A DNA stretch of 64,000 bases from Bacteroidales bacterium (GTDB taxonomy: Bacteria; Bacteroidota; Bacteroidia; Bacteroidales; 4484-276). Below, one piece after another: positions 2,922-34,568 of this stretch (positions within the stretch are counted from its first letter, which is position 1; each line of letters begins with the position of its first letter). The notes beneath the pieces are model-generated. The model did not search any database, was not told where the DNA came from, and was given only the letters and a program-made list of their open reading frames with translations. A program made the translations under genes and the position numbers. The DNA lies in assembly GCA_036794825.1 (NCBI GenBank), contig DAIRGA010000009.1:1697-65696 (forward strand). Reading direction: 5' to 3'.

Positions 2922-5900
2922 TTATTGTTTGATTACTTTTGATATGATCATACCCTCATTAAGGGTGATATTAAACTGATAAATCCCCCTTGGAAATCCA
3001 GACAAATCAACCACTTCCCGGGTTTGACCTTTCCCAATGATTTCCATTTTAAGCGCTCCCACCGTGTTATAGATTTTAATGTTTTCAATACCGGATATGC
3101 TTTGGATCGTCACAATGGACGTGGCTGGGTTAGGGAAAACCGACCATACCAATGCGTTGTTGCCGATCCCGGTGGTTTCCCTTTTCAACTCCATGATCAT
3201 GGATAAACCTTCAGGTGAAAATGTTCCATCGTGGTTGGGCAGATTTTTATCAAAAACGGCATTCAACATCCATTCTTCGCTGGTTGACGGCCTGAAAATC
3301 CTGAAATGCATCTCATCATTGGCATTAAATCCATCTTTCACAGGGGTAAGCACATCATTGGCATAAGCTGATAAAGAAGTATTTTGAGTTGTATTTCCGG
3401 CTTCGGAAATTCCAACACAAAGCCCATCAGGTGTAAATACTCCGATAATGTCACCTTCGTCCAAAATCTTTAAGGCATCTGCCTCAATTCCGATAACGTG
3501 ACTTGAACCTGTTCTGATGACAGTATTCCAGGGTGTCACAGGATCGTTTTCTGGCTCGGCAGAGGTGAATGATTTACCATCCAGGTTGTTTGGAAAAATA
3601 ACCGAACCTGATGAGTTCATGCGAACAAAATAGGATTTGCCAGGTGAAAGGTGTTCCAGTGTGGTGATTCCAAATTCCGGCCAATAGATTTTGCTACCTG
3701 CTGCTTCTTTTACGATTTGAAGATTACTTCCCAAACCATCGAACAACTCCACAGTACCTACCTCAGTATTGCTGATCACCGGGATGAGGTTCCATCCGTT
3801 GGTGAGGTTCAGGGTTTTGTTATGTTCCGGTAAGCCGGCAAAGGGCAAAGTAAATGCCTCTTCCATTTTTATCAGATACGCCGACTGGCTGAACCAGTTT
3901 CCGATGGTGTTGATACCCGATCCCGGATAATAAATCCCGGAAAGATTCTGGAGTATGGTGAAATTATCCCCAGCCGGGGCAAAAAGGGCCGGAAGCGAGG
4001 TTTCGGCTGGCATGATATAGCTCGATAATCCGCTCCAACCTGCCGGCAGGGTAATGTGATGAATCGCAGGGGTTCCCTGCCAGTTGACGCGGTCAAAGGG
4101 ATCGTTTTCAAACAGTTCAGCTGCATATTCGCCACTGTACTGCATGAAAGTGATGCTTCCCGAATTCACAGTTTTAGCCACATTGTACTGGCCGTTCCAG
4201 GTATTTTCCGGGAAGATGGCGCCGGTACTTACCAATTCCTGGCTGCTGTTCATTGTGAGCAATACGCCGGAAGGCTGTCCCTGCCTGAAAGTACAGTAAT
4301 TGAAAACTTTGGCCGGATCCATCATCGCACCTTCACTGATGTATATCCCGTCGCTGCCCATGTGTTCAAATACCGTGTATTCGGCCCCAAAATTTCCGCC
4401 CGGCTGTACCGAAAATGAATAGTTACCTGCCGACGCCTGAGTAACCAGGGCTTCCTGCCCGGCTGATCCGGTTGAAATGAAGGTACCGCCAACGTAAACG
4501 GTCAGATTACTGTTCAGTTTCAACACCGAAGAGGCACCCATGTCAAGCATACCTCCGTTATCTATGGTAACGGCACCATTACAGGTGAGCTTAAATGCCT
4601 GACTCCCCGTATTGAGTTTTCCGTTAAGGATATCGAGGTTCCCGTTAATCCTCAGATCGCCGCCCAGGTTCATATCATTACCGGTAAATACCAGACCGGT
4701 TTTGCCATTCCGGTTTGTGCCCGGGACAAGGGTAACGTTTTTAGCTCCTCCCGGTTTATTGATTTCGAGGTGGTGGAAGTTTTCGGCGGAACAGAACTGA
4801 GTGGTGGTTCCGTTGAAAACAACGCTTCCGGTGGTTTCCTCAAAACCGGCATCGCCAATGTTATTGTTCCAGTTGCCTGCAATGGAAATTGTTTTGTGGT
4901 TCGCATTCAGGGTTCCCTGTAAAATTTCCAGGTTTCCGTTTATTATTACATCATCGTAAACCATGATGGAGGATCTTGGCTTATCAATCACCACATTACT
5001 AAAATAATTCCCGCCAACTGCCTGAATATAATCCCCCGGACTCAGGTTGACAAACTCAACGGTTCCGGCCGATGGCTGAAACGTGCCCGGCGCCTGTGCT
5101 GTCAGGCTTCTTCCCAGCTTAAGGGTTCCTCCCGAAATCTGGTCATTGAAAGTGGCTCCAAGGGTTACACTGCGGTTGGGAAATTCGACAATACCGGTGG
5201 TCAGGATCATCGTTCCGTTCAGGGAAACTATGCCGTTGGAACCATGATTGACGAACGATCCGGCACCTACATTCAGAACTCCCGTTGCGGGCAGGGAAAT
5301 ATCATTATATACATCGGCTACAGATCCTGATGAAAGATTCAGGGTGCCCTCAAGGATCAGATTTCCTCCAACCGAGATGTCAGCCCCTTCGGTCATCGAC
5401 AATACCACCCCGGGTTGAATGGTGGTGTTAAAACCGACCAGAAGACCGGTAGCGAGGTCAGGGACAATCGCTCCGTTCTCTATCAGCAGGTTACCTGCCA
5501 CCCGGGTGGGATAATATCCGGTTACTTCTTTGAAATTCAACGGATTTGTAAATGAGGAGGACACTATCGTCAGGTTGCCGAATTCGGCATCATCATCCTC
5601 CGAAGGAGACAGATTCCGGATTATGGCCGTATTGCCCGTTCCCAGTTTTGCTTGCGTACCGTTGGCAAATTTCCAGTGGGTGGCGCTAATGGTGCCATGG
5701 GTAATCCCAGCCTGGGAGCCCTCATTCCAGGTAATGTCCGGAGTACTGAGATAATCAGGCGCCTGGGTCATTTTCAGGGTGGCAGAATTGATGGAAACCG
5801 CCTGGTAACAGGTTACCGTACTGGCGTTAAGATCAAAAGTTCCGGCATTAAGCATCAGGTTGCCGTCAATTCTAAGCTGATTGCTGTAAACGAAAACGGT

Positions 5901-8900
5901 ACTGGCTCTGGTTTGCGGAATTTTAAGGCCTTTCCTGTCAGTTATGACGGGTAAAGTTACTTCTCCGTCGAATGTGCCTTTGTTGATGATGACATTTCCA
6001 AACTGACAATCAGAAGCCGTAGCGATGCTGGCATCGGCGCTGCCATACATTTCAAAGGTACTGCTCAGATTCACAAACCCCGGGTTCATGTTGTTGATAC
6101 TGCCCACCGTGCGGATGATTCCTCCCTCAATATAAGTATCGAAAGTATAATTTGGGAGATCAAGCATCCTGATACCCCTGTCCTTAAAATCGAGTACGCC
6201 ACCGTACATGGTGAGCGAGCCGCTGGCCGCGTATGGCCAGTCGCTGTCGGCGCTGCCTCCGTACACATTGAACTGGCCGCCGTTGATCAGCAGGTTGCCG
6301 TTTAGATCAATCCACTGGTCGTTGGTGAGGTTGATAACACCGCCCTCGTGGAGAGTGTAGTTTCCAAAAATACCGTTATCGAACAGGTCACCGGCCGTAA
6401 AGGTACCGGCCAGCACTTCAATGCCCCCGGAAGTCCAGTCGTACTGACTGCAGTTTACCAAAATCCCCGGGTTATTGATTTTGAACAGGCCACCGGTATT
6501 GATTTCAAGTATGTTGAAAGTTTCACTGCTGAGCATATTCTGATTGGCTGACCCGTTGAATACTACCCGGCTGCCCGTTTCCAGGAATGCGGCATCGCCT
6601 GCGGTGTTCTTCCAGTCTCTGCCCACTTGGATGGTTCGGTTTTGTGCATTGAGAATTCCTGATGTAATGGTAAGATTGCCTTTAACATTAAGGACAGAGG
6701 TCTGTATGTTGTCAATCAGCACGATACCGGTCTGGTTAAATTCAAGATGGTTAAAATAATCATTCAGATTGGGCTTGATGAACTGATTCGTCCCTTTCAG
6801 CGCAACCGTACCGGCTGAACAATTCAGCGTGCCATTGCTGCTGATGTTACCATGGATATAAACCGTTTGAAGTGTGGAGATATTCATCTGAGCCCCGTTT
6901 TGGATGTACAGGTTCCCTTTTATGGTAATATTTTGTGATCCGCCGGCAATGGTAACCAACTGACCGCCGGTTTTTTCCACATTCACATTATTGAACGACA
7001 GTTCATTGCCATTCCCTGAATTTATGATAACGGACGGGGTTTCTCCTGTAAACCGTACTGTTCCTGACATGAGGTTACAATTGGCTCCGGCGTTCACCCT
7101 CCAGTCGCCGTTTACATAACATTCAGCCGCTGCCGAAAAATTGGCTATCGAACCGCTTTCCCAGAATACATCGCGCAACACGTTCAGTTTGCCTGTTGCG
7201 CCGTTCATCACCAGGCTGCCATGAATGGTTACATCGAGGTTAACGTTGAGGTTGTAATTCCCAATCGTAAGGGTGGCTGAAGGGTTGATCACCAGGAAAC
7301 GACACGATGCATTGTTGTTGCTGATCACAGGCATCTGGTAGGGTGGCGACCAGGGGATAATCACATCCATGGTTGATGTTGGAAGTATTCCGGCGCTCCA
7401 GTTGGCCGGGTTGTGCCAGTCGCTACTTACCGTGCCTTTCCAGGTGCCGGGCGCTTCGGCAAAATCGATATAGAATTTGTGGGCTCCGGGGGTATTGTCC
7501 ACATCCACCACCATAAAATAATAGGTAGTAAAGGCGGTTAGCGCCAGGGTGCCGTATTTACCCGGCCCGCTGATATTCTGAATACAGTTCCACACTGTTG
7601 AGGAACAGGAACCCGATTTCCATAGATAGGCTGCCGAACCGGAAGCGGAGCTCACCTGAACGGAGTAATTGCCTGTTGTGATAGGGGTAAAGCTATAGAT
7701 CTGCTCCAATCCCGCCGCCAGGGTACCGCAAGGCGTTGAAGAATTGGTGTACCAACTGCCGTTATAACCGCCATTATAGGTTTGCTGGTAGGAGGAGCCG
7801 GTACCGCCTATGTTGATGATGTTCTGGCAGGGATCCCAGGCAATATAAAACGCATGGGTTACCGGAGACGTGGTCTCCGGATCGAGAAGCAGCTGATATT
7901 GAACTCCTTTGATGAGGTTCAGAGAACCATAGGTACCCTGCGAATACACATCGTCAATACAGGTCCAGCCGGATGAACTGCAGGTACCGGTTCGATACAT
8001 GTAATCCACCCAGGTATTGTTGGTGAGGGGTACTTCGAGCCGGTAGATGCCGGTTTCGGGAGCGGTAAAAGTGTAAATCTGCTCCACCCCGGGACAGGAA
8101 TAGCCGCAGGCCGAGTTGGTACCTGTATTCCAGATACCGGTTCCACTTCGGGTGAAAAGCTGCACATTGGCAAAACCGCCGTAGCCCATATCGATAAAAC
8201 CAGAGCAGGGATTGCCATAACCGGTAAGGGGTATTATTTTTGGGGAAGCCACATTGTCGGCATTGTGGGTGATAACTAATTGTGCCGACTTAGGGCCGGA
8301 AGAGGACGGGCTGAACCGCACCTGGAACGAACCTCCGAAACCCGGACTCAGATAGAATGAAGGTCCACCGATGATGGAAAAATCAGCAGCATCGGGTCCG
8401 GATATGGTAATATTGTAAACTTCGAGGTTGAGATTATTGGGCCGGGTTCCCGTATTATTGACCGAGAACGGAAAAGTATTTGCGCCTCCCACATCGGCAA
8501 TGCCAAAATCCCACGATAAGGAAGGAATGGTAGTCAGCACAGCGCCGTTGCCCCCGAGGGAACTGTTCAGCCAATACTGAAGGTTGTTGTTGGGATAGGA
8601 AAGTTGAAACTTTCCCCATATCCCGTCAAACGAAGAAAAATTGCACTCATCCCAGGATGGGTTATGGCATGTACCATACAATTGACCTACCACATGTCCG
8701 CTGGTATTCACAATTACACTTCCTGAACTTCCCGGTGAACTCTGCCCGGCATAGGTAGTGGTGTGGAAATACCTCGAAATGGGAAGATTGTTGCAATCAT
8801 ACTCTGGAGTATACAGGTTTTTATACCGTGAATATTTTTGTTTTTGTCCTCCGGGATGATGCACTGCATGCAGGGTTTCACCATTACCCACGTTAGCGGT

Positions 8901-9965
8901 GGTCCAGCCGAGGTAAACGTCACCCCCGAGGTTTCTGAGCAAGACCAGAGTAAAGTCGGTATCCGGATTGGTGGCAATCAGGTTGGCGCCATTCACCACC
9001 ACGATTCCGGGACTAACCGTATCGTTGTTGCAGGCTTTTGAATAGTAGTAAAACACAGCTTCCAGGCCTGCGGCCGAAGTTTGGTTATCGAAGCAGTGGT
9101 TGGCAGTAAGAAGGTAAGGCTGGGCATCTTTTGTGCGGGCATCGTTGAGCAGTCCTCCTGAACATATTCCATATCCGGCGCCAACCGGAAAATACAGAAA
9201 AGCGGTGGAACGCCGCAGCTGATTAATATAGGTGAATTCATTGGCATACGGACAATTGGCATCAATATAGCAATCGCGGAAATTTTCCTTTTCGATGTAC
9301 CGGTTATCCACATGAATGATTTTGGTGATGGTAAACGACAGGCTCCTTTCATCCCTGCTGTTTAAAGGAATCACTACCTGAATGGTAACGGATCCGGAAA
9401 ATACGGATGTGGTATAAAACCCGTATTCATCCAGCAGTCCAATCAGTTCAGTCTGTTGAAACGACTGATCGTTATCGCCAAACACATTGACCCTGACCCC
9501 GGCCGGGAAGTAACCGCTCTCAAAGAATACCCGCAGCTGATCAGCCTTCCCCGACTGAAACCTGGTGGTGAACAACAAGGTATCCTCATGAATCCTCGAT
9601 AACCTTCCGCCGGCTATTGATGTTTCGCCTTCATCGGGTAGGGATATTTTGCCGAGATCTAAAATCAATGGTTTGGCCAGATTCCTGATAACACCTACTA
9701 AGGGTGGATCGAAACTCTCCTCGATCAACCTTCTTTCAGCCAAAGATAAACTGTCCAGCGTGTGAATTTCATCTGTGCCAAGATCACTGGACAACCAGTA
9801 TAACTTGGGCTTTTCCTTGTTTATTGACCTGTTGCTGAAGTCATATTCCTCCACATCCACCGACACTTCCTCCCAATTCAATGCGCTCTGGGAATATAAA
9901 TTATTGTAAAGGGTAAACATAACTACTGCCACCCAAATCCTCAACTTGAACAAATTTACCTTCAT
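2922..9965 (-). CDS. Giant (2347 aa) T9SS-secreted protein: S1 trypsin/lysyl-endopeptidase-like protease head, Ig-like and Cys-containing domains, long beta-solenoid-like repeat region, shared pre-CTD module, T9SS CTD
   Basis: ATG start with an N-terminal signal-like segment (WVAVVMFTLYNNLYSQS). Protease triad motifs are LLTANHCF, TDFTLVLL and PGSSGSVIV. The WHNPANW...DVIIP preamble is followed by G/N/L-rich repeats. The C-terminus carries VFPNPATS...GIYQFNI. Confidence 0.9.
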   Translation of the reverse strand: MKVNLFKLRIWVAVVMFTLYNNLYSQSALNWEEVSVDVEEYDFSNRSINKEKPKLYWLSSDLGTDEIHTLDSLSLAERRLIEESFDPPLVGVIRNLAKPLILDLGKISLPDEGETSIAGGRLSRIHEDTLLFTTRFQSGKADQLRVFFESGYFPAGVRVNVFGDNDQSFQQTELIGLLDEYGFYTTSVFSGSVTIQVVIPLNSRDERSLSFTITKIIHVDNRYIEKENFRDCYIDANCPYANEFTYINQLRRSTAFLYFPVGAGYGICSGGLLNDARTKDAQPYLLTANHCFDNQTSAAGLEAVFYYYSKACNNDTVSPGIVVVNGANLIATNPDTDFTLVLLRNLGGDVYLGWTTANVGNGETLHAVHHPGGQKQKYSRYKNLYTPEYDCNNLPISRYFHTTTYAGQSSPGSSGSVIVNTSGHVVGQLYGTCHNPSWDECNFSSFDGIWGKFQLSYPNNNLQYWLNSSLGGNGAVLTTIPSLSWDFGIADVGGANTFPFSVNNTGTRPNNLNLEVYNITISGPDAADFSIIGGPSFYLSPGFGGSFQVRFSPSSSGPKSAQLVITHNADNVASPKIIPLTGYGNPCSGFIDMGYGGFANVQLFTRSGTGIWNTGTNSACGYSCPGVEQIYTFTAPETGIYRLEVPLTNNTWVDYMYRTGTCSSSGWTCIDDVYSQGTYGSLNLIKGVQYQLLLDPETTSPVTHAFYIAWDPCQNIINIGGTGSSYQQTYNGGYNGSWYTNSSTPCGTLAAGLEQIYSFTPITTGNYSVQVSSASGSAAYLWKSGSCSSTVWNCIQNISGPGKYGTLALTAFTTYYFMVVDVDNTPGAHKFYIDFAEAPGTWKGTVSSDWHNPANWSAGILPTSTMDVIIPWSPPYQMPVISNNNASCRFLVINPSATLTIGNYNLNVNLDVTIHGSLVMNGATGKLNVLRDVFWESGSIANFSAAAECYVNGDWRVNAGANCNLMSGTVRFTGETPSVIINSGNGNELSFNNVNVEKTGGQLVTIAGGSQNITIKGNLYIQNGAQMNISTLQTVYIHGNISSNGTLNCSAGTVALKGTNQFIKPNLNDYFNHLEFNQTGIVLIDNIQTSVLNVKGNLTITSGILNAQNRTIQVGRDWKNTAGDAAFLETGSRVVFNGSANQNMLSSETFNILEINTGGLFKINNPGILVNCSQYDWTSGGIEVLAGTFTAGDLFDNGIFGNYTLHEGGVINLTNDQWIDLNGNLLINGGQFNVYGGSADSDWPYAASGSLTMYGGVLDFKDRGIRMLDLPNYTFDTYIEGGIIRTVGSINNMNPGFVNLSSTFEMYGSADASIATASDCQFGNVIINKGTFDGEVTLPVITDRKGLKIPQTRASTVFVYSNQLRIDGNLMLNAGTFDLNASTVTCYQAVSINSATLKMTQAPDYLSTPDITWNEGSQAGITHGTISATHWKFANGTQAKLGTGNTAIIRNLSPSEDDDAEFGNLTIVSSSFTNPLNFKEVTGYYPTRVAGNLLIENGAIVPDLATGLLVGFNTTIQPGVVLSMTEGADISVGGNLILEGTLNLSSGSVADVYNDISLPATGVLNVGAGSFVNHGSNGIVSLNGTMILTTGIVEFPNRSVTLGATFNDQISGGTLKLGRSLTAQAPGTFQPSAGTVEFVNLSPGDYIQAVGGNYFSNVVIDKPRSSIMVYDDVIINGNLEILQGTLNANHKTISIAGNWNNNIGDAGFEETTGSVVFNGTTTQFCSAENFHHLEINKPGGAKNVTLVPGTNRNGKTGLVFTGNDMNLGGDLRINGNLDILNGKLNTGSQAFKLTCNGAVTIDNGGMLDMGASSVLKLNSNLTVYVGGTFISTGSAGQEALVTQASAGNYSFSVQPGGNFGAEYTVFEHMGSDGIYISEGAMMDPAKVFNYCTFRQGQPSGVLLTMNSSQELVSTGAIFPENTWNGQYNVAKTVNSGSITFMQYSGEYAAELFENDPFDRVNWQGTPAIHHITLPAGWSGLSSYIMPAETSLPALFAPAGDNFTILQNLSGIYYPGSGINTIGNWFSQSAYLIKMEEAFTLPFAGLPEHNKTLNLTNGWNLIPVISNTEVGTVELFDGLGSNLQIVKEAAGSKIYWPEFGITTLEHLSPGKSYFVRMNSSGSVIFPNNLDGKSFTSAEPENDPVTPWNTVIRTGSSHVIGIEADALKILDEGDIIGVFTPDGLCVGISEAGNTTQNTSLSAYANDVLTPVKDGFNANDEMHFRIFRPSTSEEWMLNAVFDKNLPNHDGTFSPEGLSMIMELKRETTGIGNNALVWSVFPNPATSIVTIQSISGIENIKIYNTVGALKMEIIGKGQTREVVDLSGFPRGIYQFNITLNEGMIISKVIKQ
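2925..3149 (-). other. T9SS type-A C-terminal sorting domain (CTD)
   Basis: The last ~75 aa read VWSVFPNPATSIVTIQS...IKIYNTVGALK...LSGFPRGIYQFNITLNEGMIISKVIKQ (FPNP box, G-x-Y box, basic C-terminus). Confidence 0.8.
3186..4058 (-). other. Shared uncharacterised pre-CTD module, copy 1 of 4
   Basis: ITLPAGWSGLSSYIMP...SGIYYPGSGINTIGNWFSQSAYLIKM...GWNLIPVIS...KIYWPEFGITTLEHLSPGKSYFVRM...TPWNTVIRTGSSHVIGI...GDIIGVFTPDGLCVG...MHFRIFRPS...EGLSMIMEL. It is collinear with the copies at 10347-11216, 24015-24884 and 29790-30650. Confidence 0.7.
8586..9203 (-). other. S1-family serine protease domain of the 2347-aa protein
   Basis: His in YLLTANHCF (aa 290), Asp in NPDTDFTLV (aa ~337) and Ser in SSPGSSGSV (aa 414). 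The order and spacing fit chymotrypsin-fold proteases of the lysyl-endopeptidase / Trypsin_2 type. Confidence 0.7.
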
Positions 9966-20104: not shown

Positions 20105-20175
20105 AAGAGATTGAATTAGCGTGTTTTAGTCAAATATTCAGGATTTCTGAACTACTTGCAGGAATCAAAAACACC

Positions 20176-21042: not shown

Positions 21043-21069
21043 AACGATCTGCAGATTAGGAAGTTGAGA

Positions 21070-23421: not shown

Positions 23422-23709
23422 TATCAAACAGATTTTTAGGTTTTCGTAACTGTCTTCCGTAAAGGTATTGAGTAACGTCATAAACTTAACGACTGTATTT
23501 CAATAACTTTGACAAATCCTTACACTTTTTTAAGTCCGTTAGAGGATTTTCAATAATCAATGACAATGGAAATTTTGTTGGGTTGCAAACGGGTAAAGAA
23601 ATTAAACAAAACACTGATCCATCGGTTCATTAGAATTCCAATGGTCAAAAAGAGGAATAATTAATTGAAATTGAATGAAATAAAGATCAACTTCGTGGTA
23701 GGTTTAGGC

Positions 23710-23765: not shown

Positions 23766-26700
23766 TTACCTGATCACAACTTTCTGGGAGATGGTCTGGT
23801 CGTTACCCACCAGCCTGATGAAATAAACTCCGGAAGGCTGATCTGTGAGGTCAATCCTGCCGGCATTCAGCTTTCTGTTGTAAACCACCTGACCCTGGCT
23901 GTTCATAACGGTTACATTGTATGAAGCATCAGCGCCGGTAATGTTAAACAGACCATTTGACGGGTTCGGATAGATTCTCAACGCATTGCCAGAATTTCCG
24001 CCAACTCCGGTAGCTCCGGCTTTCAGATCGGTGATTAAGGAAAGTCCGTTAGTCGCATACAGATCGGTGTTAACCAATTGCGTGCTGAATACAGGCTCAG
24101 CTACGATCACTTCGTTGCTGCTGAAAATTCTGACTTCCATGAATTCACCTTCTTTCATACCATCCAGGTTGTCGGTGGTAAGGTCATTACCATAAACCGG
24201 GATTACGAAGGCTTCATTTTTGCCGGAGAATCTGGTTAAGCCTGTGCAACTTCCTTCAGCATTGAAAACGCCGATGAAGTCACCTGCTTTCAACGTACTG
24301 GCAGCTTCTGCTGATACGCCAACGATGTGGACATTTCCGGTGTTGTAGGCATCATTCCACGGTGTGGTGTTCTCGAAAACTGCAACCGAATTCGGAATTA
24401 TTTCGCTCTTGGTTACATTGAAGTTGAGCGTTGTTGTCGAGTTGAATTTCACCAGGTAGCCATAGCCGGGATAAAGCGTTTCAAGTGTATAAACGTTACC
24501 GAATGGCCACCAGATTGCACCGTCGAGGCCAAATGCAAACTCGATGTCCTTACCACCAAAAATGGAGGCAGCAGGCACTGCGGAGTTACTTAGTACAGGA
24601 ATCAGATAGGTTCCGGCAGGGAAGGTTATTGTCTTGTTTTCAATCTCTGGTCCAGTAAATACAAGCAGTCCTTCAGCTCCCATCTTGAGCTTATAGCCTA
24701 CCAGGTTGTCCCAGTTACCGATCGTGTTGATATTTTGAGACGGCCAGTAAATTCCATCGAATCCGATCATGATAATCATCTCTTCGTTGATGTTAGCCAG
24801 AGCAGCTTCGAGTGTCATTTTGCTGTCCAGGTTCAGATAGGTCGAGATGTATCCCCAGCTATTTGGAGCAGGGATCGGAATCTTCTGGAAGGGTTGGTCA
24901 AACACCTCAAGCCCAATAAGCACAACTTTTTCCAGCTCACCATCAAATGCTGAGAATGTCATGCTTGAATAGTATGCTCCCGGCAACATCCCTGTTGCAT
25001 TAAAAGTGAAATCGAGCGTTGTTGAACCAAGTGGTGGAATAGTTCCGGAAATTGCGCTTAATGAAGCCCATGTTTCGTTAAGATCAACAATCCAGTCAAT
25101 GGCTATACTGTTTGGATTTGTGATAACGACTTGATATGTAGAGGATTCGCCAACAAGCAGAGCGTCATACAACCCTCCCGGTGAAACCATCATGTTGTAA
25201 ACATCCATTGACACATCAACAGTTTTTGAAATCAGTCCATTGGCGCCCGTAAAAAGAATTTCTGTTTCATAAAATCCTGACACAAGTGCAGTAGCATCCA
25301 GGGTTAACTGGAGCATTTCGGTTGCTCCAACAGGGATTTCACCTGCTGATTTATCCAGCGAAGCCCAACCGGATTTGTCGGTGAAAGCTGCACTCCATGG
25401 AAGTGGATAAGGTCCAGGATTGGTAACTTCAATGTTCCAGACTGATGTTTCACCAATCTGTAATTCATCATAGATTGTCATTGGATTAATCACCATGTCG
25501 AACACTTCGAGCTGGATATCAATAACTTCAGATACTGCTCCGCTGGCGCCGGTTATTACAACCTGACCCTGGTAAACACCCGGAGGTACTGCTGCGCCGT
25601 TGAAATTCAATTGGATAACCTGCTGGCCACCGGCTGAAACTACTCCGCTCAATGCGCTTAAAGTTGCCCAGGGTTGCGGGAGGTTTAGTGTGGCATTCCA
25701 GAACAGCGCTTTAGCGCCCGGATTTGAAATGGTGATGGGCCACTGAGATGTTCCGGTCGTGCTGAGTTGATCTGAAATCACCGGAGGCTGAACTTCCATG
25801 AGGCTGGTAGTCAGGTAGATGTTATCTACGTACCACCAGTCAATGTTATAGTTGTCACCACCTTCGGCAGTGAATCCAAGTTGGAACATTTTCCCGGCAG
25901 CAAATTGGGAAATATCATAGCTGAAGTTTGTCCACGGGATACTTCCAGTGCCTGCGCCCTGATTATTGAATGTATTTACAACATGCCATTGCGTACCATC
26001 ATAAACTCCAAAAATGAGTTTTTCAATGGTTAATTTTGAGTAGTTCTGCAACAGCAAGTCAAACTGCGCATAAATCTTATCCTTGCCAACCCCATTAATA
26101 AAGTGACTCTGTAATCTTCTGGAATAATTATAAACGCGTGGATCCCAGTAAAAACGTGCAGTAGGTGCAGGATTACCTACAGTTGATTGAACGCTCCATT
26201 GTGGAGATGAAGGCACCACCGTCCATTGCTGCGCTGCAAATGTTCCTGATCCCCAGTTTTCGACAAACGGAATAGTGTAGGGTACAACCGGGTTCAAGGT
26301 AGTGTTCATTACGGTAGTCTGGTTCGGATTGATCGGAACGTTTGACAACGTCTTCGATGCATAGCCATACTTCGATATTGTCAGATTGTAATTTCCTGAT
26401 TCCCAATCAAAATTATAAGTACCAGTTGCATCTGTGTAAATGGTTGTGCTGTAATTTCCGGGCAATGTTTGCTGAACAAAAATTGCTGCATTTTCAACCG
26501 GCAGACCCGTTGAATTATCTGTGATCACGCCGGTAAGTTGCCCATAATAGGAAACATAGAAAAACCAGGGTTCGCATCCCAACGTTTCACCGGAGAAATT
26601 GTAAGGTACAAGCAACCATGCGAAATATGATCCCGATTCGAAAGGTTCGGCCGGAGTGTAGGAAGTAACGTTCCCGAGATCAGTATTTTCTTCGATCCAG

Positions 26701-29297
26701 ATATCGCTTGTAACGTTATAAAGGTAAAGTTTGTATCCGGTAGCTGCATTGTTACCACCCGGCGCCCATTGCAGCGAAATGTTGGGTAATACTGTCTGAT
26801 CAACGGCCGGATAAACCAAAGTTGGACAATCTGGTGCAGGAACTAGTGCCATGTTTACATTTAATTCGGTAGTTCCTGCAGGTTCAACTTCTACATTTTC
26901 AATTAGTTGCGTGATATAGTTTGCTTTTTCAAAACTTACGTCATACAACCCTGGCTCGACAGGGAAGAAAGTGTATCGTCCGAGGGCATTGGTGTATGCT
27001 ACCTCTTTTGCATTGCCCAATGTAACCTTAACATTAGGCAATCTGTTACCATTCAGGTCAAATACCAAACCGGTGACTTTGCCTGGAGGAGGCGGGTCCT
27101 GTGCGGTGATGGTGAGGTCAAAGGAAGGGATGCAATTTGGTGTTGGCCATGTGTCAACCATAACATAGTAAGTGCCGGCCTCAAGCCTTTTAGAGATCAC
27201 CATTGGAGTTGTAGCGCTACCGTTGGTCTTAAAATCAACGCAGTTAACCGGCGGGCAGTCACTGGCCAATAATATACCAGCCCACTGTGTTCCATTGGGA
27301 TTTACGGTGATAACCACATCTTTGGTTGAGGTCAAAGTAAATTGATACAAAATATCTTCACCATCGTCATATAAACCGAGGCAGGTTTCGCTGTAGAAGT
27401 TGCCATAGCCGCAGTTGGTCTGGTCAAGTGCCTCATACGGGAAATTGCCTACCACTATGGCGTTGCTGCAATTGCTACCGGCTAATTCCTCAAGAATTGC
27501 ATCCTGTGAGGTTGTTTCTCCACCCAGGATATCAATACCCACAACTGTTTGCGAAGAATAGCCAACTTTCGAAAATACTACATCATAAGTACCAACGGGT
27601 AATTCCAAGGTGTAGTCACCGTTTACGTCCGTTGTGGTGAATGCTTTGGCGAGGTCAGCTGTAACAAGGACACCTTCAAGTGGCATGTTATTGACATCAT
27701 AAGCGGTTCCAGCTAAAGTGCCGCTGGTCGGTTTTTCTGAAATTGAAAAATCATCAATCCCAAAGCCATAAAAAGTTGATTGTGAATAATATTGGTAAAA
27801 TGCAACATAAACTGTTTGCCCAGTGAAAGCGCTTAAATCCAGTGTATGTTCTGTCCATGCAGTATTGATGCAGTTGAAATCCCCCAGTTCATTTGTAAAT
27901 GAGGCGATTGCAGGAGTGGTTGTTGATACTAAAACTTTGTATTTGTTTGGATAGCTGGCACTCTCCACCTTGTCCCACCATTTAATTAGTGTATTGATTC
28001 CTGTTAGATTGAAGGGTGGAGTAATCAGCCAGTCATTTGTATTACCCATACCATGAGCAGCATAAGGTAGCGAATGCGTTGGAGTGATGTAGGTGTTTGC
28101 CTGTTTCCAGAAATAACCATCGCTGTTAGCATTTATTACAGTCCAGTTTGTAGGAGCTGCGGGTGATCCAGTCCATGTTCCGTCAAAATTTTCCGAATAG
28201 GGGAAACTGGATATCGTAGGATCAGCCATTGTAGTAAAACTCCACACACTGCATCCGGATGCGTCGCCGTTGTCATTGTAAGGAACCACCTGCCAGTAAT
28301 AGGTTGTAGAATAACCCATTGGTGGGCTGTAGGTGTTTACAGCGCCAACATTGGTTCCGTTCAGGATATTGGTTGGCGGATTGTCCGTACCAAAATAGAG
28401 TTTGTAACCTGTTGGTCCACCGCCACCGGATGCCCAGTTCAGTGAAGCATATTTGGAAATCCCTGTTGCCGCATTAGCTGGTGATACTATCGTAGCGCAG
28501 TTTGGTGGCGTTGTAATTACTGGTGGTGAAAAAGTATAAGTTAACCCTGAAGCAGGCAGAAGAGTGGTACTGTAAGCACATGAGGAAGAATTGGTCGTTC
28601 CAGGAACACTGGTTGCCCAGGTATGGGTTCCTGATGTAATCATCCTGTTGTTAACATTCAACGGGAAAGTGTTGTTTGGACCTCTTAATCCAACCTGGCC
28701 AGTCCCTGACGCTGGTGCGCCCACAAAATTAAAGTCATAAACAAACTTGATTGCATTAGTTGTTTCCAATAGCTGAATTTGAAAATTCCATCGCCAGATA
28801 GGCGTTGTTGAGGTTGATGTGCTGTAGGGTCGGAAATTCTTGTATTGAACGACGAATACCCTGTTCGGTGCAGTGCCAAGTGTTTGGTATCTGATCTCAC
28901 CTGTGTACCCTGAAATATTGAACAATGAATTTAAATCCCTGCCGATTGGGGCAATACAGCCTGCGTAGCTAGTAGTTGCACTGATTGGGGTATATGTACC
29001 TCCTAAAGGTGCAGTTGTGCCAAAAGTGATGAAACCGTTAGTGCTCAGGTTGAAACCCGTGTATCCACTTCCGTCAAAATTAAAGGTAAACGGAATTGTT
29101 CCGGCAGGTAAAGTGTAAACCACATCGTCGAGGGAGGCAGCGCCGGATGCGCCTGTAGCAGTTGCAACTACCGTTCCACCTGTGATTTCAGTGTAAGTTC
29201 CTGCAGCGCTTGAGAATGAATAAGTGCTGACTTGTGCCCATGATCCCAAAGCGAGCACAAAAAGCCACATAAAAAGTAAACTTGTAACTTTTTTCAT
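23766..29297 (-). CDS. Giant (1843 aa) T9SS-secreted protein: choice-of-anchor-J-like domain, three CarboxypepD_reg-like domains, FN3-like domains, three tandem Ig-like repeats, shared pre-CTD module, CTD
   Basis: ATG start with signal MKKVTSLLFMWLFVLALGSWAQ. DWLITPPFNL...YKVLVS is choice-of-anchor-J-like. GTAYDVNNMPLEGVLVTA, GLVFDLNGNRLPNVKVTL and GVITDNSTGLPVENAAIFV are CarboxypepD_reg-like. The CTD reads RIYPNPSNGLFNITG...PSGVYFIRL. Confidence 0.9.
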   Translation of the reverse strand: MKKVTSLLFMWLFVLALGSWAQVSTYSFSSAAGTYTEITGGTVVATATGASGAASLDDVVYTLPAGTIPFTFNFDGSGYTGFNLSTNGFITFGTTAPLGGTYTPISATTSYAGCIAPIGRDLNSLFNISGYTGEIRYQTLGTAPNRVFVVQYKNFRPYSTSTSTTPIWRWNFQIQLLETTNAIKFVYDFNFVGAPASGTGQVGLRGPNNTFPLNVNNRMITSGTHTWATSVPGTTNSSSCAYSTTLLPASGLTYTFSPPVITTPPNCATIVSPANAATGISKYASLNWASGGGGPTGYKLYFGTDNPPTNILNGTNVGAVNTYSPPMGYSTTYYWQVVPYNDNGDASGCSVWSFTTMADPTISSFPYSENFDGTWTGSPAAPTNWTVINANSDGYFWKQANTYITPTHSLPYAAHGMGNTNDWLITPPFNLTGINTLIKWWDKVESASYPNKYKVLVSTTTPAIASFTNELGDFNCINTAWTEHTLDLSAFTGQTVYVAFYQYYSQSTFYGFGIDDFSISEKPTSGTLAGTAYDVNNMPLEGVLVTADLAKAFTTTDVNGDYTLELPVGTYDVVFSKVGYSSQTVVGIDILGGETTSQDAILEELAGSNCSNAIVVGNFPYEALDQTNCGYGNFYSETCLGLYDDGEDILYQFTLTSTKDVVITVNPNGTQWAGILLASDCPPVNCVDFKTNGSATTPMVISKRLEAGTYYVMVDTWPTPNCIPSFDLTITAQDPPPPGKVTGLVFDLNGNRLPNVKVTLGNAKEVAYTNALGRYTFFPVEPGLYDVSFEKANYITQLIENVEVEPAGTTELNVNMALVPAPDCPTLVYPAVDQTVLPNISLQWAPGGNNAATGYKLYLYNVTSDIWIEENTDLGNVTSYTPAEPFESGSYFAWLLVPYNFSGETLGCEPWFFYVSYYGQLTGVITDNSTGLPVENAAIFVQQTLPGNYSTTIYTDATGTYNFDWESGNYNLTISKYGYASKTLSNVPINPNQTTVMNTTLNPVVPYTIPFVENWGSGTFAAQQWTVVPSSPQWSVQSTVGNPAPTARFYWDPRVYNYSRRLQSHFINGVGKDKIYAQFDLLLQNYSKLTIEKLIFGVYDGTQWHVVNTFNNQGAGTGSIPWTNFSYDISQFAAGKMFQLGFTAEGGDNYNIDWWYVDNIYLTTSLMEVQPPVISDQLSTTGTSQWPITISNPGAKALFWNATLNLPQPWATLSALSGVVSAGGQQVIQLNFNGAAVPPGVYQGQVVITGASGAVSEVIDIQLEVFDMVINPMTIYDELQIGETSVWNIEVTNPGPYPLPWSAAFTDKSGWASLDKSAGEIPVGATEMLQLTLDATALVSGFYETEILFTGANGLISKTVDVSMDVYNMMVSPGGLYDALLVGESSTYQVVITNPNSIAIDWIVDLNETWASLSAISGTIPPLGSTTLDFTFNATGMLPGAYYSSMTFSAFDGELEKVVLIGLEVFDQPFQKIPIPAPNSWGYISTYLNLDSKMTLEAALANINEEMIIMIGFDGIYWPSQNINTIGNWDNLVGYKLKMGAEGLLVFTGPEIENKTITFPAGTYLIPVLSNSAVPAASIFGGKDIEFAFGLDGAIWWPFGNVYTLETLYPGYGYLVKFNSTTTLNFNVTKSEIIPNSVAVFENTTPWNDAYNTGNVHIVGVSAEAASTLKAGDFIGVFNAEGSCTGLTRFSGKNEAFVIPVYGNDLTTDNLDGMKEGEFMEVRIFSSNEVIVAEPVFSTQLVNTDLYATNGLSLITDLKAGATGVGGNSGNALRIYPNPSNGLFNITGADASYNVTVMNSQGQVVYNRKLNAGRIDLTDQPSGVYFIRLVGNDQTISQKVVIR
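23769..23984 (-). other. T9SS type-A C-terminal sorting domain (CTD)
   Basis: ALRIYPNPSNGLFNITGADASYNVTVMNSQGQVVY...DQPSGVYFIRLVGNDQTISQKVVIR. Confidence 0.8.
24015..24884 (-). other. Shared uncharacterised pre-CTD module, copy 3 of 4
   Basis: IPAPNSWGYISTYLNL...DGIYWPSQNINTIGNWDNLVGYKLKM...GTYLIPVLS...AIWWPFGNVYTLETLYPGYGYLVKF...TPWNDAYNTGNVHIVGV...GDFIGVFNAEGSCTG...MEVRIFSS...NGLSLITDL. Confidence 0.65.
24903..25799 (-). repeat. Three tandem ~100-aa (303-nt) Ig-like/BACON-like repeats inside the 1843-aa gene
   Basis: The units start MEVQPPVISDQL..., MVINPMTIYDEL... and MMVSPGGLYDAL.... Each has the pattern (W/Y)-x-I-x-(I/V)-(S/T)-N-P...W(A/-)(T/S)L(S/D)...G....L...F/L....L..G.Y and ends in (L/M)(E/D)V(F/Y)(D/N). 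Confidence 0.7.
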
Positions 29298-29534: not shown

Positions 29535-32500
29535 CTACCTGATCACAATCTTTTCGACAAGCTGCAATTCGTTGGTGCTGATTTTCAGGTAATAAACACC
29601 CCGGCTCAACGCCGACAAATCCAATTGTGTGTCGCCATCCAAAGTTCCGCTGTAAACGATCTGTCCTTTTGTGTCAAAAACATTTACAGTGGCTTTGATG
29701 TCAGTTGCTATCAGGAACTTTCCATCGGATGGGTTAGGATAGATTGAAACCGGTAACTGGTTGTTTGAATTTACAGACAATGAACCTACTTTCAGGGTTT
29801 GGATGACAGAAAGGCCATTTTCTTCAAACTGGCCGGTATTGAAAGCAGGATCAAACGTTGCAGTAAGGTCGGCCTGCTGGCCTGTTGATGGCCTGTAGAG
29901 TCTGAAATGCAACGCTGCGTTCTCGGTCAAACCATCGGTTGAAATGGTTGTAAAATCATCACCCCAGGCTACCATGGCAAGGTTGGTTTCATATCCTTTA
30001 TAAGCCGACATTCCAACACACACACCATCGGAGGCAAATACTCCGATTACATCCCCGGCTTCGATGCTTGCGAGGGCGCTGGCCGAAACAGAGATGATGT
30101 GAGCAATGCCGGTGTTTAGCGGATCGTTCCAATTTGTTGGGTTAACCAGCGGGACGGTTGACTGCGGATTAACAGCATTCTTGCCTGCAAAGCTGAAAGT
30201 TGCTGGTTGCAGCAGTCTGACAAGATATCCTATGCCAGGCTCAAGTGTTTCGAGCGTATATAGCTGTCCCTGAGGCCAGTAAATCAAACCTTCCTGAATG
30301 TTGAATGCAAAGAGGAGCGAATTTCCAACAGGATCAAAAACATCTGAAGCATCCACCGGAACAGCGGAAAGCACCGGCAGATAATGCAAGCCTGCAGAAA
30401 ATGCTACCTCCGGTTCTGCCGGACTTCCGAAGACTTCAAGCAACGCACCCTGGTTCATTTTGATCTTGTATCCTTCGTAAGCGTTCCAGTCGCCAAACAG
30501 GTTGATATTTTGCGGCGGCCAGTAGAATCCTCCGAAGCGCAGGATGATTTCCATGTAATCCTCAATTCCGGCAAGAAGTATTTCAACATCCGGATTTTCG
30601 GGAACTATGAAACTTGAAATGCCCAGCCAGCCGGCAGGAAGATCAATTTCCTGGTAAACTTCGCTTGTGAAAGTTATCTTCACCAGAACCTCATCGGACA
30701 TGTTTCCGGTAACATCCTGAACAAATCCAGTGTACTGATAAGTGCCAAATGGATAAACGCCATTTACTCTGAGGTAGTCATCGGGCTGGCCGAGGAGGTA
30801 TTGCAGACCATCAACCAGCATAAACGGGGCAACTTTTGGTCCGGCAAGATAGCGGATGTAGAATGTTGGCAGTTCTCCGCTGATAATCTGCCACATGATC
30901 GGCTGCCAGGCGCCTGTACAACCTTCAAAGACACCTTTGCCTGCCCAGTAAGGATAGAAGTTTGCCGGCAGGCTCCCGGTATTAAGGTAGAACGGGAAGT
31001 AGCTCTCCATCAGAGGCACATTGGTTTGTGTGTTTGGTCCAAGGTCAAGATAATAATATTCAATCAATGCATCCAGTCCGATCACAAATCCGTCGGCAAG
31101 GTTGCCATCTGCAGGTTCCCATGCCGATTTATCGGTCGAAACGATCAGGTCAGCATCAAGGAAGAATGGGAAAGGAGCTGCAGATTGGTTGAGAGTGACA
31201 ATCGCCTCGGGATTCAATGCATCAGGTGCTGTAATGGTGATGATGGCAGTGCGGTCGAAACCCGTATCATTTTGATCAAAAGTGATTCCTATAGCGCTGT
31301 TGCCACTTCCGTTACCTGGCGCTGCAGCAAGCCAGGGATCAGCAACGCTAATTGACCAGTCAGAACCAATGAAACCGCTAAATCCGATTTCGAAACCAGT
31401 GACACCGGCAAGGTATCCGACATTAATCACTTCAGGATTCACAATCAGGGTAGGTTTTCCGATTTCAAAATTAATGGCTTTTGCCTGTTGGTTGGTTTGT
31501 GCAGTGATTACCCCCTGGAAGAGGCCTACACCGTTTTTGTTGAAAGTGGCCGGAGTGATTAAAGTCCCCTGAACCTGTACGGTACCACCTGGAGCGATGG
31601 CAGCGATCTGGTTGGGAGTAAAGGTGAAACTTCCGGCTGGTATTACATTGCCAAACTCATCAGTTAGCGCCGATGCAAAAATATCAATATTGAGCAGGGC
31701 CGATTCTCCTCCAGTTTCGTTTACATCGAAGGTGAAGTTGTAAGTATGACTGTATTCAAAGGGATTGTAACCGATGACAGGTGGTGAAAGTTCCATAATA
31801 GGAATCTCAGACGGGGGATTTACGATAATAACATTCAACCCTCCAATTGCATTTACAAACGAACTTGCAGCAATGGTTCTGTAAGGATCAAGGTCAATTA
31901 TGAAGCACTCTTCATCCACCAGCACATCGTCAAGTGTAAAGGCCCTGAAGCAGAGCTCAATCTCTTTGGTTGACGGGCAGAGGTTTTTGATCTGCGTATT
32001 GTAGTTGCCTGCGGTTTGCAGGTTTTTCAACCATTCCCAATAATCTGCACCTGTTGATGTCCAGCTGGATTCCGGGATATTGTTGTAATTGGATGTGCTG
32101 GTTATTCCGGCTGCATTTCCTAATTCATCAAAAATAGAAAATTCAAGACAATCGTCTTTGGCCACATCCAGGTCTAATGAAATGGTGAATTTGCTGCCCG
32201 GAGGAACCGTTCCTGTCTGCAGACAAAGCAAAGCCAGGGCTGTTTCCATCTTTGGACCGCCATATCCTCCCCATTGGTCCCAATAGTAATTGCCGTTGCC
32301 GTCAATTTTCCTCTGGCCTTCAATGGCAGAATACATATAGTCGTACCAGTTTCCTCCGCCAAAAATGGTTTTGTTACCTAAAGCCATAGCCTTTGCAAAA
32401 CCATAAAGGTAATAATAGTAACCTCCACCCTCATAAATCTGATTACCTCCAATGCTGCCCGGGTTTACCAATTGTGCCAGTGTGAAGTTGCCTAAATAGT

Positions 32501-33341
32501 TGTAAAACTGATCTTTTAAAGTAGACGCAGCGGCAACGCCATGGTCGGCGGCCAGCACAGCTCCCCATGCACCAGCGCATGTCATTCCTTGGGGACGTGT
32601 GTTACAATCCTGATAACCAACTCTGGCAGCATTGCCTGATAAGCATTTTTGCCAGTTCAGGTAGCCATAAATTTTATTCCATACACCTTTTTCTTCGTAA
32701 TCTCTGGAATCCAATGCAAGGTAAACCCACTGGTTAACCGACATATCACCGCCTGTTTCGCTGGTATATCCGCGGTGGTAACGCCAACTTACACGCGACC
32801 AGCCTACATTGATGTCCTGAGTGTAGTAATTGACTGCCAGCGCAATAGCATTTTCAATAGTGGTTTTCTGTGCTCCTGAAATGTAGCCACCACCATACAA
32901 GGGTGTTTTCAATGCAAGATTAAGAGCGAAAATAGCCATGGCTGTTTCATAACCATACGAATCACCTCCATAGCCGTAAAATGCACCATATTGCCCGCCG
33001 GAGAGGATCTGGGTGGATAAGATGTAGCCTATAGCATTGCTTACCACGGTTCCATACACCGGGTCGTCAATGTTGTGTCCGTTTTGCAGGAATGCCTGCA
33101 GGCATAACGCAGTAATACCGGATCCACCCCAGTTTCCGGGAACCTTGCTCTCCTCCGGAATAACACCACCGGGGTTGATGCTGGTAGCGCCGAACGTTAC
33201 CCCATCTTTGGTTGTACTCTGGACTGAAGCCAGATAGGCCAGTCCTTTATCAATCAGGATGTTGCCTTTTTGTGGCTGACCCACCAGAGTCAAACCAATC
33301 AAACATCCTGTTAATAACATTGTTAGAGTCTTGATTTTCAT
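29535..33341 (-). CDS. 1268-aa T9SS-secreted protein: N-terminal alpha/alpha-toroid (prenyltransferase / squalene-cyclase-repeat-like) domain, BACON-like domain, shared pre-CTD module, CTD
   Basis: ATG start with signal MKIKTLTMLLTGCLIGLTLVGQ. QW-like repeats include YLASVQSTTKDG, YILSTQILSGGQYGAF and EGQRKIDGNGNYYW. The CTD reads SIYPNPSDGKFLIAT...SRGVYYLKI. It is the last gene of a tightly spaced three-gene operon. Confidence 0.9.
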   Translation of the reverse strand: MKIKTLTMLLTGCLIGLTLVGQPQKGNILIDKGLAYLASVQSTTKDGVTFGATSINPGGVIPEESKVPGNWGGSGITALCLQAFLQNGHNIDDPVYGTVVSNAIGYILSTQILSGGQYGAFYGYGGDSYGYETAMAIFALNLALKTPLYGGGYISGAQKTTIENAIALAVNYYTQDINVGWSRVSWRYHRGYTSETGGDMSVNQWVYLALDSRDYEEKGVWNKIYGYLNWQKCLSGNAARVGYQDCNTRPQGMTCAGAWGAVLAADHGVAAASTLKDQFYNYLGNFTLAQLVNPGSIGGNQIYEGGGYYYYLYGFAKAMALGNKTIFGGGNWYDYMYSAIEGQRKIDGNGNYYWDQWGGYGGPKMETALALLCLQTGTVPPGSKFTISLDLDVAKDDCLEFSIFDELGNAAGITSTSNYNNIPESSWTSTGADYWEWLKNLQTAGNYNTQIKNLCPSTKEIELCFRAFTLDDVLVDEECFIIDLDPYRTIAASSFVNAIGGLNVIIVNPPSEIPIMELSPPVIGYNPFEYSHTYNFTFDVNETGGESALLNIDIFASALTDEFGNVIPAGSFTFTPNQIAAIAPGGTVQVQGTLITPATFNKNGVGLFQGVITAQTNQQAKAINFEIGKPTLIVNPEVINVGYLAGVTGFEIGFSGFIGSDWSISVADPWLAAAPGNGSGNSAIGITFDQNDTGFDRTAIITITAPDALNPEAIVTLNQSAAPFPFFLDADLIVSTDKSAWEPADGNLADGFVIGLDALIEYYYLDLGPNTQTNVPLMESYFPFYLNTGSLPANFYPYWAGKGVFEGCTGAWQPIMWQIISGELPTFYIRYLAGPKVAPFMLVDGLQYLLGQPDDYLRVNGVYPFGTYQYTGFVQDVTGNMSDEVLVKITFTSEVYQEIDLPAGWLGISSFIVPENPDVEILLAGIEDYMEIILRFGGFYWPPQNINLFGDWNAYEGYKIKMNQGALLEVFGSPAEPEVAFSAGLHYLPVLSAVPVDASDVFDPVGNSLLFAFNIQEGLIYWPQGQLYTLETLEPGIGYLVRLLQPATFSFAGKNAVNPQSTVPLVNPTNWNDPLNTGIAHIISVSASALASIEAGDVIGVFASDGVCVGMSAYKGYETNLAMVAWGDDFTTISTDGLTENAALHFRLYRPSTGQQADLTATFDPAFNTGQFEENGLSVIQTLKVGSLSVNSNNQLPVSIYPNPSDGKFLIATDIKATVNVFDTKGQIVYSGTLDGDTQLDLSALSRGVYYLKISTNELQLVEKIVIR
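29538..29753 (-). other. T9SS type-A C-terminal sorting domain (CTD)
   Basis: PVSIYPNPSDGKFLIATDIKATVNVFDTKGQIVYS...LSALSRGVYYLKISTNELQLVEKIVIR. Confidence 0.8.
29790..30650 (-). other. Shared uncharacterised pre-CTD module, copy 4 of 4
   Basis: IDLPAGWLGISSFIVP...GGFYWPPQNINLFGDWNAYEGYKIKM...GLHYLPVLS...LIYWPQGQLYTLETLEPGIGYLVRL...TNWNDPLNTGIAHIISV...GDVIGVFASDGVCVG...LHFRLYRPS...NGLSVIQTL. Confidence 0.65.
31182..31460 (-). other. BACON-like Ig-fold domain in the 1268-aa protein
   Basis: GKPTLIVNPEVINVGYLAGVTGFEIGFSG..SDWSISVADPWLAAAPGNGSGNSAIGITFDQNDTGFDRTAIITITAP....AIVTLNQS has the W...W...G.G.......N....R.A.I.......V.Q spacing I associate with BACON domains. Confidence 0.45.
32208..33263 (-). 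other. alpha/alpha-toroid (terpenoid-cyclase / prenyltransferase-repeat-like) domain of the 1268-aa protein
   Basis: Aromatic/Gly-rich helical-hairpin repeats with Q-x(2-5)-G-x-(W/F/Y) motifs span aa ~27-378. It is a paralogue-like relative of the 392-aa protein encoded immediately upstream. Confidence 0.55.
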
Positions 33342-34557: not shown

Positions 34558-34568
34558 AAGCAATGTAA

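Follow-up and report, generated by a model that had tools for sequence, protein, structure and literature searches.

The stretch of DNA analyzed here, a window of 64,000 nucleotides on contig DAIRGA010000009.1 of a Bacteroidales bacterium (GenBank assembly GCA_036794825.1), encodes four giant proteins, A to D, that carry different N-terminal heads and finish with a common block followed by a type IX secretion system (T9SS) C-terminal domain (CTD) of type A. As judged by profile searches, this block belongs to no named family and is made up of two undescribed domains, which we term D1 and D2. The usual picture of a T9SS cargo is a head joined to a CTD; here, a conserved unit of ~300 residues lies between the two in thousands of proteins.

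A shared block in four giant proteins

The last ~390 residues of the four proteins align collinearly (MAFFT), with a mean column identity of 57%. BLASTP searches of the full proteins with default composition-based statistics resulted in E values of 3e-55 (A-D), 2e-47 (A-C), 1e-51 (B-D), 1e-40 (B-C), and 3e-66 (C-D), and for A-B in a value of 7e-158 over 809 aa, plus internal repeats, so that A and B have more in common than the block. The initial annotation, which was made from the DNA letters alone, had proposed one collinear block directly before a type A CTD in four otherwise unrelated proteins. The block itself is borne out in all four (BLASTP E values of 1e-40 to 1e-158), and the strings quoted from it are found in the translations of all four proteins. 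The lack of any other relationship holds for the pairs other than A-B, between which the shared C-terminal region is the sole BLASTP similarity, and fails for A and B, which are related over those 809 aa. The similarity also retains its significance once compositional bias is controlled, as Smith-Waterman alignment of the modules without the CTD gave scores of 361–854 versus 37–39 ± 6 for residue-shuffled partners (z = 56–126); compositional bias is therefore not its cause.

The four open reading frames (ORFs) of 2347, 1998, 1843, and 1268 aa are present on the minus strand as had been described, and the module boundaries given at that time lie within about 10 nt of those derived from the hidden Markov models (HMMs) described below. 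The parts are listed here, and all of their coordinates in the window were confirmed by translation.

Gene A, 2922..9965, minus strand: 2347 aa; signal peptide, Trypsin_2/choice-of-anchor D head, long repeat region, D1-D2-CTD
A D1, 3585..4064, minus strand: aa 1968-2127; internally duplicated alpha/beta domain; local D1 HMM E 2.5e-69; translation checked
A D2, 3174..3539, minus strand: aa 2143-2264; predicted seven-strand beta-sandwich; D2 HMM E 4.4e-48
A linker, 3141-3173, minus strand: 11 residues, predicted disordered, preceding the CTD
A type A T9SS CTD, 2925..3140, minus strand: aa 2276-2347; PF18962 E 1.5e-08, TIGR04183 E 4.5e-08
Gene B, 10080..16076, minus strand: 1998 aa; signal peptide, GEVED head, repeat region common with A, D1-D2-CTD
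B D1, 10743..11225, minus strand: aa 1618-1778; D1 HMM E 3.3e-69; translation checked
B D2, 10338..10697, minus strand: aa 1794-1913; D2 HMM E 1.1e-44
B type A CTD, 10083..10298, minus strand: aa 1927-1998; PF18962 E 2.3e-08
Gene C, 23766..29297, minus strand: 1843 aa; signal peptide, choice_anch_J, CarboxypepD_reg x3, BACON_2, D1-D2-CTD
C D1, 24417..24893, minus strand: aa 1469-1627; D1 HMM E 2.7e-55; translation checked
C D2, 24012..24371, minus strand: aa 1643-1762; D2 HMM E 2.7e-41
C type A CTD, 23769..23975, minus strand: aa 1775-1843; PF18962 E 2.9e-12
Gene D, 29535..33341, minus strand: 1268 aa; signal peptide, head without family match, BACON, D1-D2-CTD
D D1, 30186..30656, minus strand: aa 896-1052; D1 HMM E 2.2e-57; translation checked
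D D2, 29781..30143, minus strand: aa 1067-1187; D2 HMM E 2e-44
D type A CTD, 29538..29744, minus strand: aa 1200-1268; PF18962 E 2.1e-13
Whole module (D1 start to D2 end, HMM-based), minus strand: 3174-4064 (A), 10338-11225 (B), 24012-24893 (C), 29781-30656 (D)

A type A sorting domain was recognized in all four proteins, with scores of 34.7–50.8 bits against PF18962 (cut-off 27) and 31.3–51.9 bits against TIGR04183 (Por_Secre_tail; cut-off 23), the matches ending at the last residues. In all four proteins, the N-terminus begins with basic residues, continues with a hydrophobic stretch, and resembles a Sec signal peptide as judged by eye. These sequence features place A, B, C, and D in the type A class of T9SS cargo. 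The heads assigned earlier were mostly recovered, namely Trypsin_2 in A, GEVED in B, choice-of-anchor J and CarboxypepD_reg in C, and BACON in D; the alpha/alpha toroid assigned to D found no Pfam or PDB-sequence match. An HMM scan located the module in no further ORF of the window, and no T9SS machinery genes were found in it.

The absence of a match between the block and any named domain, which the initial annotation had noted, was upheld in Pfam-A, NCBIfam, and the PDB sequences. Searching the four modules against Pfam-A (2025, E up to 10) gave no family match and one chance match to QWRF (E 0.074), NCBIfam r20 gave none within the block, and profile searches of the PDB sequences resulted in chance matches only (E at least 0.3). 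When 50 diverse full-length homologues were compared with Pfam, many head domains were identified, none of which covers the block, and no carbohydrate-binding module (CBM) or lectin model was among them. Foldseek searches of the PDB with predicted structures of the whole module and of D1 alone retrieved no chain at E ≤ 1e-3, the best match of D1 having an E value of 0.07 and matches reaching a TM score of at most 0.23; a gingipain was absent from the top 50 matches, and the BFVD library of viral structures gave no significant match. The fold of D1, as modeled, is possibly new. No conserved pre-CTD module of the D1-D2 kind was described in the full-text literature searched.

Two independent domains

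The block is not the single ~290-aa module that it had been taken for. It consists of two independent domains, D1 (~160 aa) and D2 (~120 aa), as D1 stands alone at the end of other proteins and D2 by itself forms tandem arrays with as many as 15 copies, frequently well away from the C-terminus. A first database search returned 24 matches that contain the D1-D2 block in full or in part, the majority also having a CTD, and 12 further matches that cover the first ~160 residues only, lack a CTD, and end 1–14 (mostly 1–5) residues before the stop codon, with a conserved '...TFP' closing the D1 match. Because of these D1-only homologues, separate HMMs were built for D1 (residues 1968–2127 of A), D2 (residues 2143–2264), and the CTD. 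A second search with D1 alone as the query returned only 12 short proteins.

D1 arose by the internal duplication of an alpha/beta unit of ~78 aa. Its two halves align with an hhalign probability of 99.1% (E 6e-19) and have in common the pattern GW...helix...YWP...Y.(I/V)K, and the AlphaFold2 model shows them as two beta-beta-alpha-beta-beta-beta-beta units, a pseudo-twofold duplication. The whole block, modeled with AlphaFold2 from an 18-sequence alignment, reached a mean predicted local distance difference test (pLDDT) score of 90.3 and a predicted TM (pTM) score of 0.87, and D1 alone (AlphaFold) a pLDDT of 96.6 and a pTM of 0.90. D2 appears in the whole-block model as seven strands, with residues 186–298 in blocks of pLDDT 88–97. 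The 25-residue connector between D1 and D2 was modeled at lower confidence, and model residues 301–311, the last 11 before the CTD, are predicted to be disordered in this one model (pLDDT below 50). Since the pTM of the two-domain model is high, it implies a fixed arrangement in which D2 would be packed rigidly on D1.

Three possible origins of D2 were considered and rejected. D2 is neither a diverged CTD (hhalign probability 0.5%) nor a relative of the D1 halves (0.3%). A CarboxypepD_reg or transthyretin-like identity, hinted at by short BFVD alignments, was rejected at the sequence level (0.3%), and CarboxypepD_reg-like matches never overlap D2.

Distribution and architecture of the family

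When 1.84 billion representative proteins, clustered at 50% identity, were searched exhaustively with HMMER, 11,395 clusters matched with E values of ≤ 1e-3; 6,925 reached E ≤ 1e-10 and 2,771 reached E ≤ 1e-30. Domain order was tabulated for 184 proteins, consisting of the four window proteins and 180 homologues drawn from the best representatives and the first matches. Among these, D2-D1-D2-CTD (70/184) and D1-D2-CTD (66/184) are the most frequent arrangements and D1 alone accounts for 11/184, the usual order being (D2)n-D1-D2-CTD behind very varied heads. In the 141 proteins with D1-D2-CTD, 10–18 aa separate D1 from D2 and 8–16 aa separate D2 from the CTD, which ends 0–3 residues from the C-terminus. 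This position close to the C-terminus is nearly invariable for D1, of which a protein usually has a single copy. Giant proteins of 2,000–6,400 aa contain 5–15 tandem copies of D2, with D1 and the CTD each present or absent. The block directly adjoins a type A CTD in about 85–90% of the top representatives.

The initial description of a constant C-terminal module with swappable heads extends to the whole family, as 46 of 50 representatives contain Por_Secre_tail and their heads include PKD, CarboxypepD_reg, GEVED, BACON, sortilin/BNR, cohesin, dockerin, peptidases C10 and M28, LamG, and leucine-rich repeats (LRR). No single enzyme class dominates these heads, and glycoside hydrolases are not enriched in the 50 representatives. 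Many members are short (~450 aa), with only about 50 aa between the signal peptide and D1-D2-CTD. In widespread short members of ~455 aa (P0008-P0012, P0017), the ~50-aa N-terminal stretch carries the motif '...SGG.YE..LS.SWTLGEPVIETF....LTQGFQQP', which has no Pfam match.

A scan of species-representative genomes with narrow patterns derived from a 4-sequence alignment identified 61 loci, nearly all in metagenome-assembled genomes (MAGs) of Lentimicrobiaceae, Bacteroidales, or Bacteroidota. The module genes are multi-copy and clustered, with four in the window and 3–5 loci per MAG, often side by side, and one locus from KSB1 has the order D2-D1. Genes for the module with a CTD were also encountered in MAGs labeled Clostridia (L046, L062, L064; SABY01, 'Clostridia bacterium INTA.CYC.150') and Candidatus Falkowbacteria (P0009), for which mis-binning or mislabeling is more likely than true presence outside the Fibrobacteres-Chlorobi-Bacteroidetes (FCB) group.

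Proteins that end in D1

The expectation that the module is always followed by a CTD is untrue, because D1 ends complete proteins that lack one; the link between module and CTD is strong and not absolute. One such protein is a beta-helix protein that ends in D1, with the next gene on the opposite strand (P0031), and in five others (L055, L054, L047, L051, L037) the stop codon lies 0–2 residues past D1. Two adjacent paralogues (P0028 and the gene after it, at L002 503-1852) have in common a signal peptide and an 80-aa N-terminal domain, and P0028 ends in D1 and the gene after it directly in a type A CTD. At a further locus (L053 2744-4831), an ORF that ends in D1 precedes, in another frame, what is left of the last D2 strand ('NCLSAITGFE'), and the CTD that comes next is intact. 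Judging by the sequence, a D1-D2-CTD gene has probably lost the greater part of its D2 here, and some D1-terminal proteins are therefore probably decayed D1-D2-CTD genes. We also considered a module split over adjacent genes, in which the gene after that of a D1 protein would encode D2-CTD; no such split is seen in L001/L002 or L003, and L053 shows a decayed D2.

Conserved residues and candidate sites

Among the window paralogues, identities are 30–64% for D1, 31–45% for D2, and 23–38% for the CTD. In the 141-protein set, which was picked by D1/D2 score and therefore biases the comparison, the mean identities are 38% for D1, 34% for D2, and 29% for the CTD. D1 retains about 20 invariant or near-invariant residues among sequences that are 30–50% identical, including W12, S16, P49, N54, T55, W59, Y65, K68, W130, P131, and Y147. 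The GW, YWP, and Y residues that recur in both halves are probably determinants of the fold. N54, T55, W59, and K68 are near-invariant in a loop and strand of the first half and have no counterpart in the second, and our best guess from this pattern is that they form a candidate functional site. Many D1 copies (P0008-P0012, L047, L051) also have a Cys pair ('PVLSxC', 'TFPxC'), probably a disulfide by its sequence, that is missing from all four window copies.

In D2, a His, an Asp, and a single Cys (H191, D207, and C218 in the module numbering of gene A) are kept at 82–100% in 334 copies from all contexts, whether after D1, before D1, or in arrays. No second conserved Cys for a disulfide was found in D2 across these copies. 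The three residues may serve as a metal site, in a cross-link, or in a redox role.

Proposed role and alternatives

We tentatively favor a reading in which D2-D1 would be a membrane-proximal base that is kept on the mature cargo after removal of the CTD, with D1 as a docking platform and D2 as a spacer. Cleavage, surface location, and any binding are matters that we infer, as follows. The N-terminal signal peptides suggest export by Sec, after which the CTD would guide passage through the T9SS and hand-over to PorV, as is established for type A CTDs. A PorU-type sortase, by analogy with Porphyromonas and Prevotella, would cut the 8–16-residue linker after D2 and join the new C-terminus to a surface glycolipid; in Prevotella, the CTD is cut in a flexible linker between it and the preceding folded domain (PMC11969387). 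D2-D1 would then be the membrane-proximal end of the mature protein, where D2, elsewhere also the unit of long stalks, may act as a rigid spacer and D1 as a docking platform for a ligand common to all module proteins. This ligand might belong to the surface of the producer itself, as a glycan or as another protein bearing D1 or D2, and the outcome would be that very different heads are held and oriented on one cell surface. The diversity of the heads, with no dominant enzyme class, points to the producing cell, and not the substrates, as the source of the shared ligand. Conservation of D1 and D2 above that of the CTD, the fixed geometry, and the clustering and copy number of the genes would, as sequence-level observations, count for a base with a docking function.

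Several points weigh against this proposal. Complete proteins that bear a signal peptide and have D1 as the last domain exist without a CTD, have no obvious route over the outer membrane, and fit poorly with a role in surface anchoring alone. For the many heads that are enzymes, release would be just as conceivable. When 213 neighboring ORFs from the 61 loci were clustered, no family occurred in more than 5 loci, so that no conserved partner gene was found. Both the architecture statistics, which are based on the 150 best-scoring representatives, and the taxonomy, which is based on the pattern-limited genome scan, reflect biased samples.

A different possibility is that D1 looks outward, as a CBM- or lectin-type module for a polymer of the environment or the surface of a host or prey, with D2 as an Ig-like spacer and adjacency to the CTD incidental to domain shuffling. 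A catalytic domain, a binding module, an Ig-like domain, and a CTD are a common architecture in T9SS cargo, and the conserved Trp, Tyr, Asn, Thr, and Lys residues of D1 would suit such a module, as would its terminal position in CTD-less enzymes, such as proteins with beta-helix (NosD/Beta_helix matches) or other unannotated heads. We nevertheless consider this unlikely, because no Pfam CBM or lectin model matches the module and the heads range from proteases to LRR and PKD arrays without enrichment of glycoside hydrolases. D1 moreover is placed singly, at a fixed position and with fixed linkers, in contrast to the free placement typical of CBMs, and many members offer only a signal peptide and about 50 aa ahead of D1-D2-CTD.

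The block could also be a passive pedestal, with D1 and D2 adding length or rigidity between the lipid-linked C-terminus and the head and having no ligand of their own. The long tandem arrays of D2, which recall PKD or Big stalk domains, the fixed linker lengths, the predicted rigid packing of D2 on D1, and the absence of a conserved partner gene nearby are all consistent with a pedestal. Pure spacers usually drift fast, yet the CTD is less conserved here than D1 and D2, and neither the near-invariant residues of D1 nor the retention of the D2 His, Asp, and lone Cys in every context is expected of a spacer; the rule of one D1 per protein is likewise hard to explain. A mere pedestal accordingly appears improbable, somewhat more so than an outward-looking D1.

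In a variant of the docking idea, D1 would be a new-fold docking domain that binds D2 units or a surface glycan in trans, proteins with D2 arrays and a CTD would be scaffolds, and CTD-less D1 proteins would be displayed or co-exported via partners. Such a system would be a class of cell-surface targeting in its own right in Bacteroidota, resembling cohesin-dockerin assembly and coupled to the T9SS. This arrangement is hinted at by the complete D1-terminal proteins without a CTD and the predicted fixed contact between D1 and D2, as well as by the existence of both (D2)n-CTD and (D2)n-D1 proteins and the paralogue pair at L002. We regard docking in trans as a long shot, slightly less probable than a pedestal.

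The initial annotation had suggested a dedicated surface-display or cargo-adaptor unit, which is a putative role only. PorV recognizes all type A CTDs as a shuttle, and secretion of sfGFP is efficient when it is fused upstream of a type A CTD (PMC12618676), which argues against D1-D2 as a required part of the signal; an obligatory adaptor role of the block in secretion is thus unlikely. The weakest explanation, an extension of the secretion signal that aids recognition, export competence, or specialized shuttle hand-over of giant cargo, fits the direct adjacency to the CTD in most top representatives and the fixed geometry relative to it but is very doubtful, given that the CTD alone suffices for sfGFP and the general shuttle serves all type A cargo, that D1 and D2 are both found without a CTD and D2 also far from the C-terminus, that small ~450-aa proteins carry the block as well, that D2 is unrelated to the CTD, and that no PorP/SprF-like shuttle gene or other conserved neighbor adjoins the module genes in the window or recurs among the neighbors of the 61 loci.

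If D1 binds the producer's surface or partners, as our proposal of a membrane-proximal base would have it, surface display by the T9SS would gain a second layer, of a non-covalent kind. The way in which little-studied anaerobic Bacteroidales such as the Lentimicrobiaceae, known here only from MAGs, organize a coat of giant proteins would then be explained as well. With a very confident model and no structural neighbor, D1 is a good target for structure determination and for the definition of a new family, and with HMMs for D1 and D2 one could better annotate many giant proteins now labeled 'hypothetical' or 'T9SS type A sorting domain-containing'.

Genes near the module genes

The region between the two pairs of giant genes (16338-23481) contains a PALP (cysteine-synthase-type) gene, a hexapeptide acyltransferase, a dihaem-type cytochrome c, a DUF4249 protein, and a CarboxypepD_reg/Plug TonB-type receptor. 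As these housekeeping and transport genes split the pairs, the four module genes are not one operon. Directly downstream of gene A, an ORF of 879 aa (222-2861, minus strand) features long NTA/G-rich repeats and, at the C-terminus, a Peptidase_S74 intramolecular-chaperone domain (E 2e-08), and by its sequence looks like a tail-fiber or endosialidase-type fiber. A 392-aa ORF with a weak squalene-hopene-cyclase-type repeat (33385-34563, minus strand) lies 44 nt upstream of gene D. Proteins of ~400 aa that are similar to it and have a prenyltransferase-like motif occur in four related loci (representative L022 579-1778), and this type of ORF may form a conserved gene pair with D-type proteins. The window further contains a type II restriction-modification pair (45191-46992, minus strand), consisting of an EcoO109I-like endonuclease (E 4e-93) and an N6/N4 DNA methylase.

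The gene context of the widespread short homologue P0009 was uninformative as to a recurrent partner. An Lcl_C-domain gene, a bAvd-like gene, and a 4984-aa T9SS giant protein are located nearby (L065-L068), and the first two suggest a diversity-generating retroelement.

Comparison with known systems

By position, the closest analogue of the block is found in the Porphyromonas gingivalis gingipain RgpB, in which an immunoglobulin superfamily (IgSF) domain directly precedes the type A CTD. The likeness consists of a pre-CTD beta-sandwich, a flexible linker at the expected sortase cut, and a domain that is kept, or in the case of D2 would be kept, on the mature protein. The module differs from the RgpB domain in having no sequence or Foldseek similarity to any solved structure, in the additional, larger D1, and in the use of D2 as the repeat unit of arrays.

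In logic, the module is closest to the SLH, GW, and CWB2 domains of Gram-positive bacteria, which anchor proteins non-covalently at the cell surface, are constant terminal modules on many unrelated secreted proteins of one organism, and are present in multiple copies per genome. These are built from repeats, and D1 likewise arose from an internal duplication. There is no homology between them, however, the hosts here are diderm Bacteroidota, and the module normally adjoins a signal for covalent anchoring, the type A CTD.

Type B CTDs set the final destination of the cargo at the cell surface, and such cargo is often genetically linked to genes for PorP/SprF-like shuttles (PMC12618676); SprB and SprF are of this type. 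The likeness is that of a C-terminal element of T9SS cargo that sets a surface destination; in contrast, the window proteins match the type A and not the type B model in NCBIfam, have no PorP/SprF-like neighbor, and carry D1-D2 upstream of the signal.

D2 by itself most closely resembles the tandem stalk domains PKD, Big, BACON, and CarboxypepD_reg in being a predicted beta-sandwich found in 5–15-copy arrays, but it has no profile relation to CarboxypepD_reg or any Pfam model and carries a His/Asp/Cys signature. As an analogy only, the multiplication of D2 on scaffold-like proteins, some with a CTD, and the single D1 at the C-terminus recall cohesin and dockerin. The predicted D1-D2 contact is within one chain, there is no homology, and true Cohesin and Dockerin Pfam domains sit separately in the heads of a few members.

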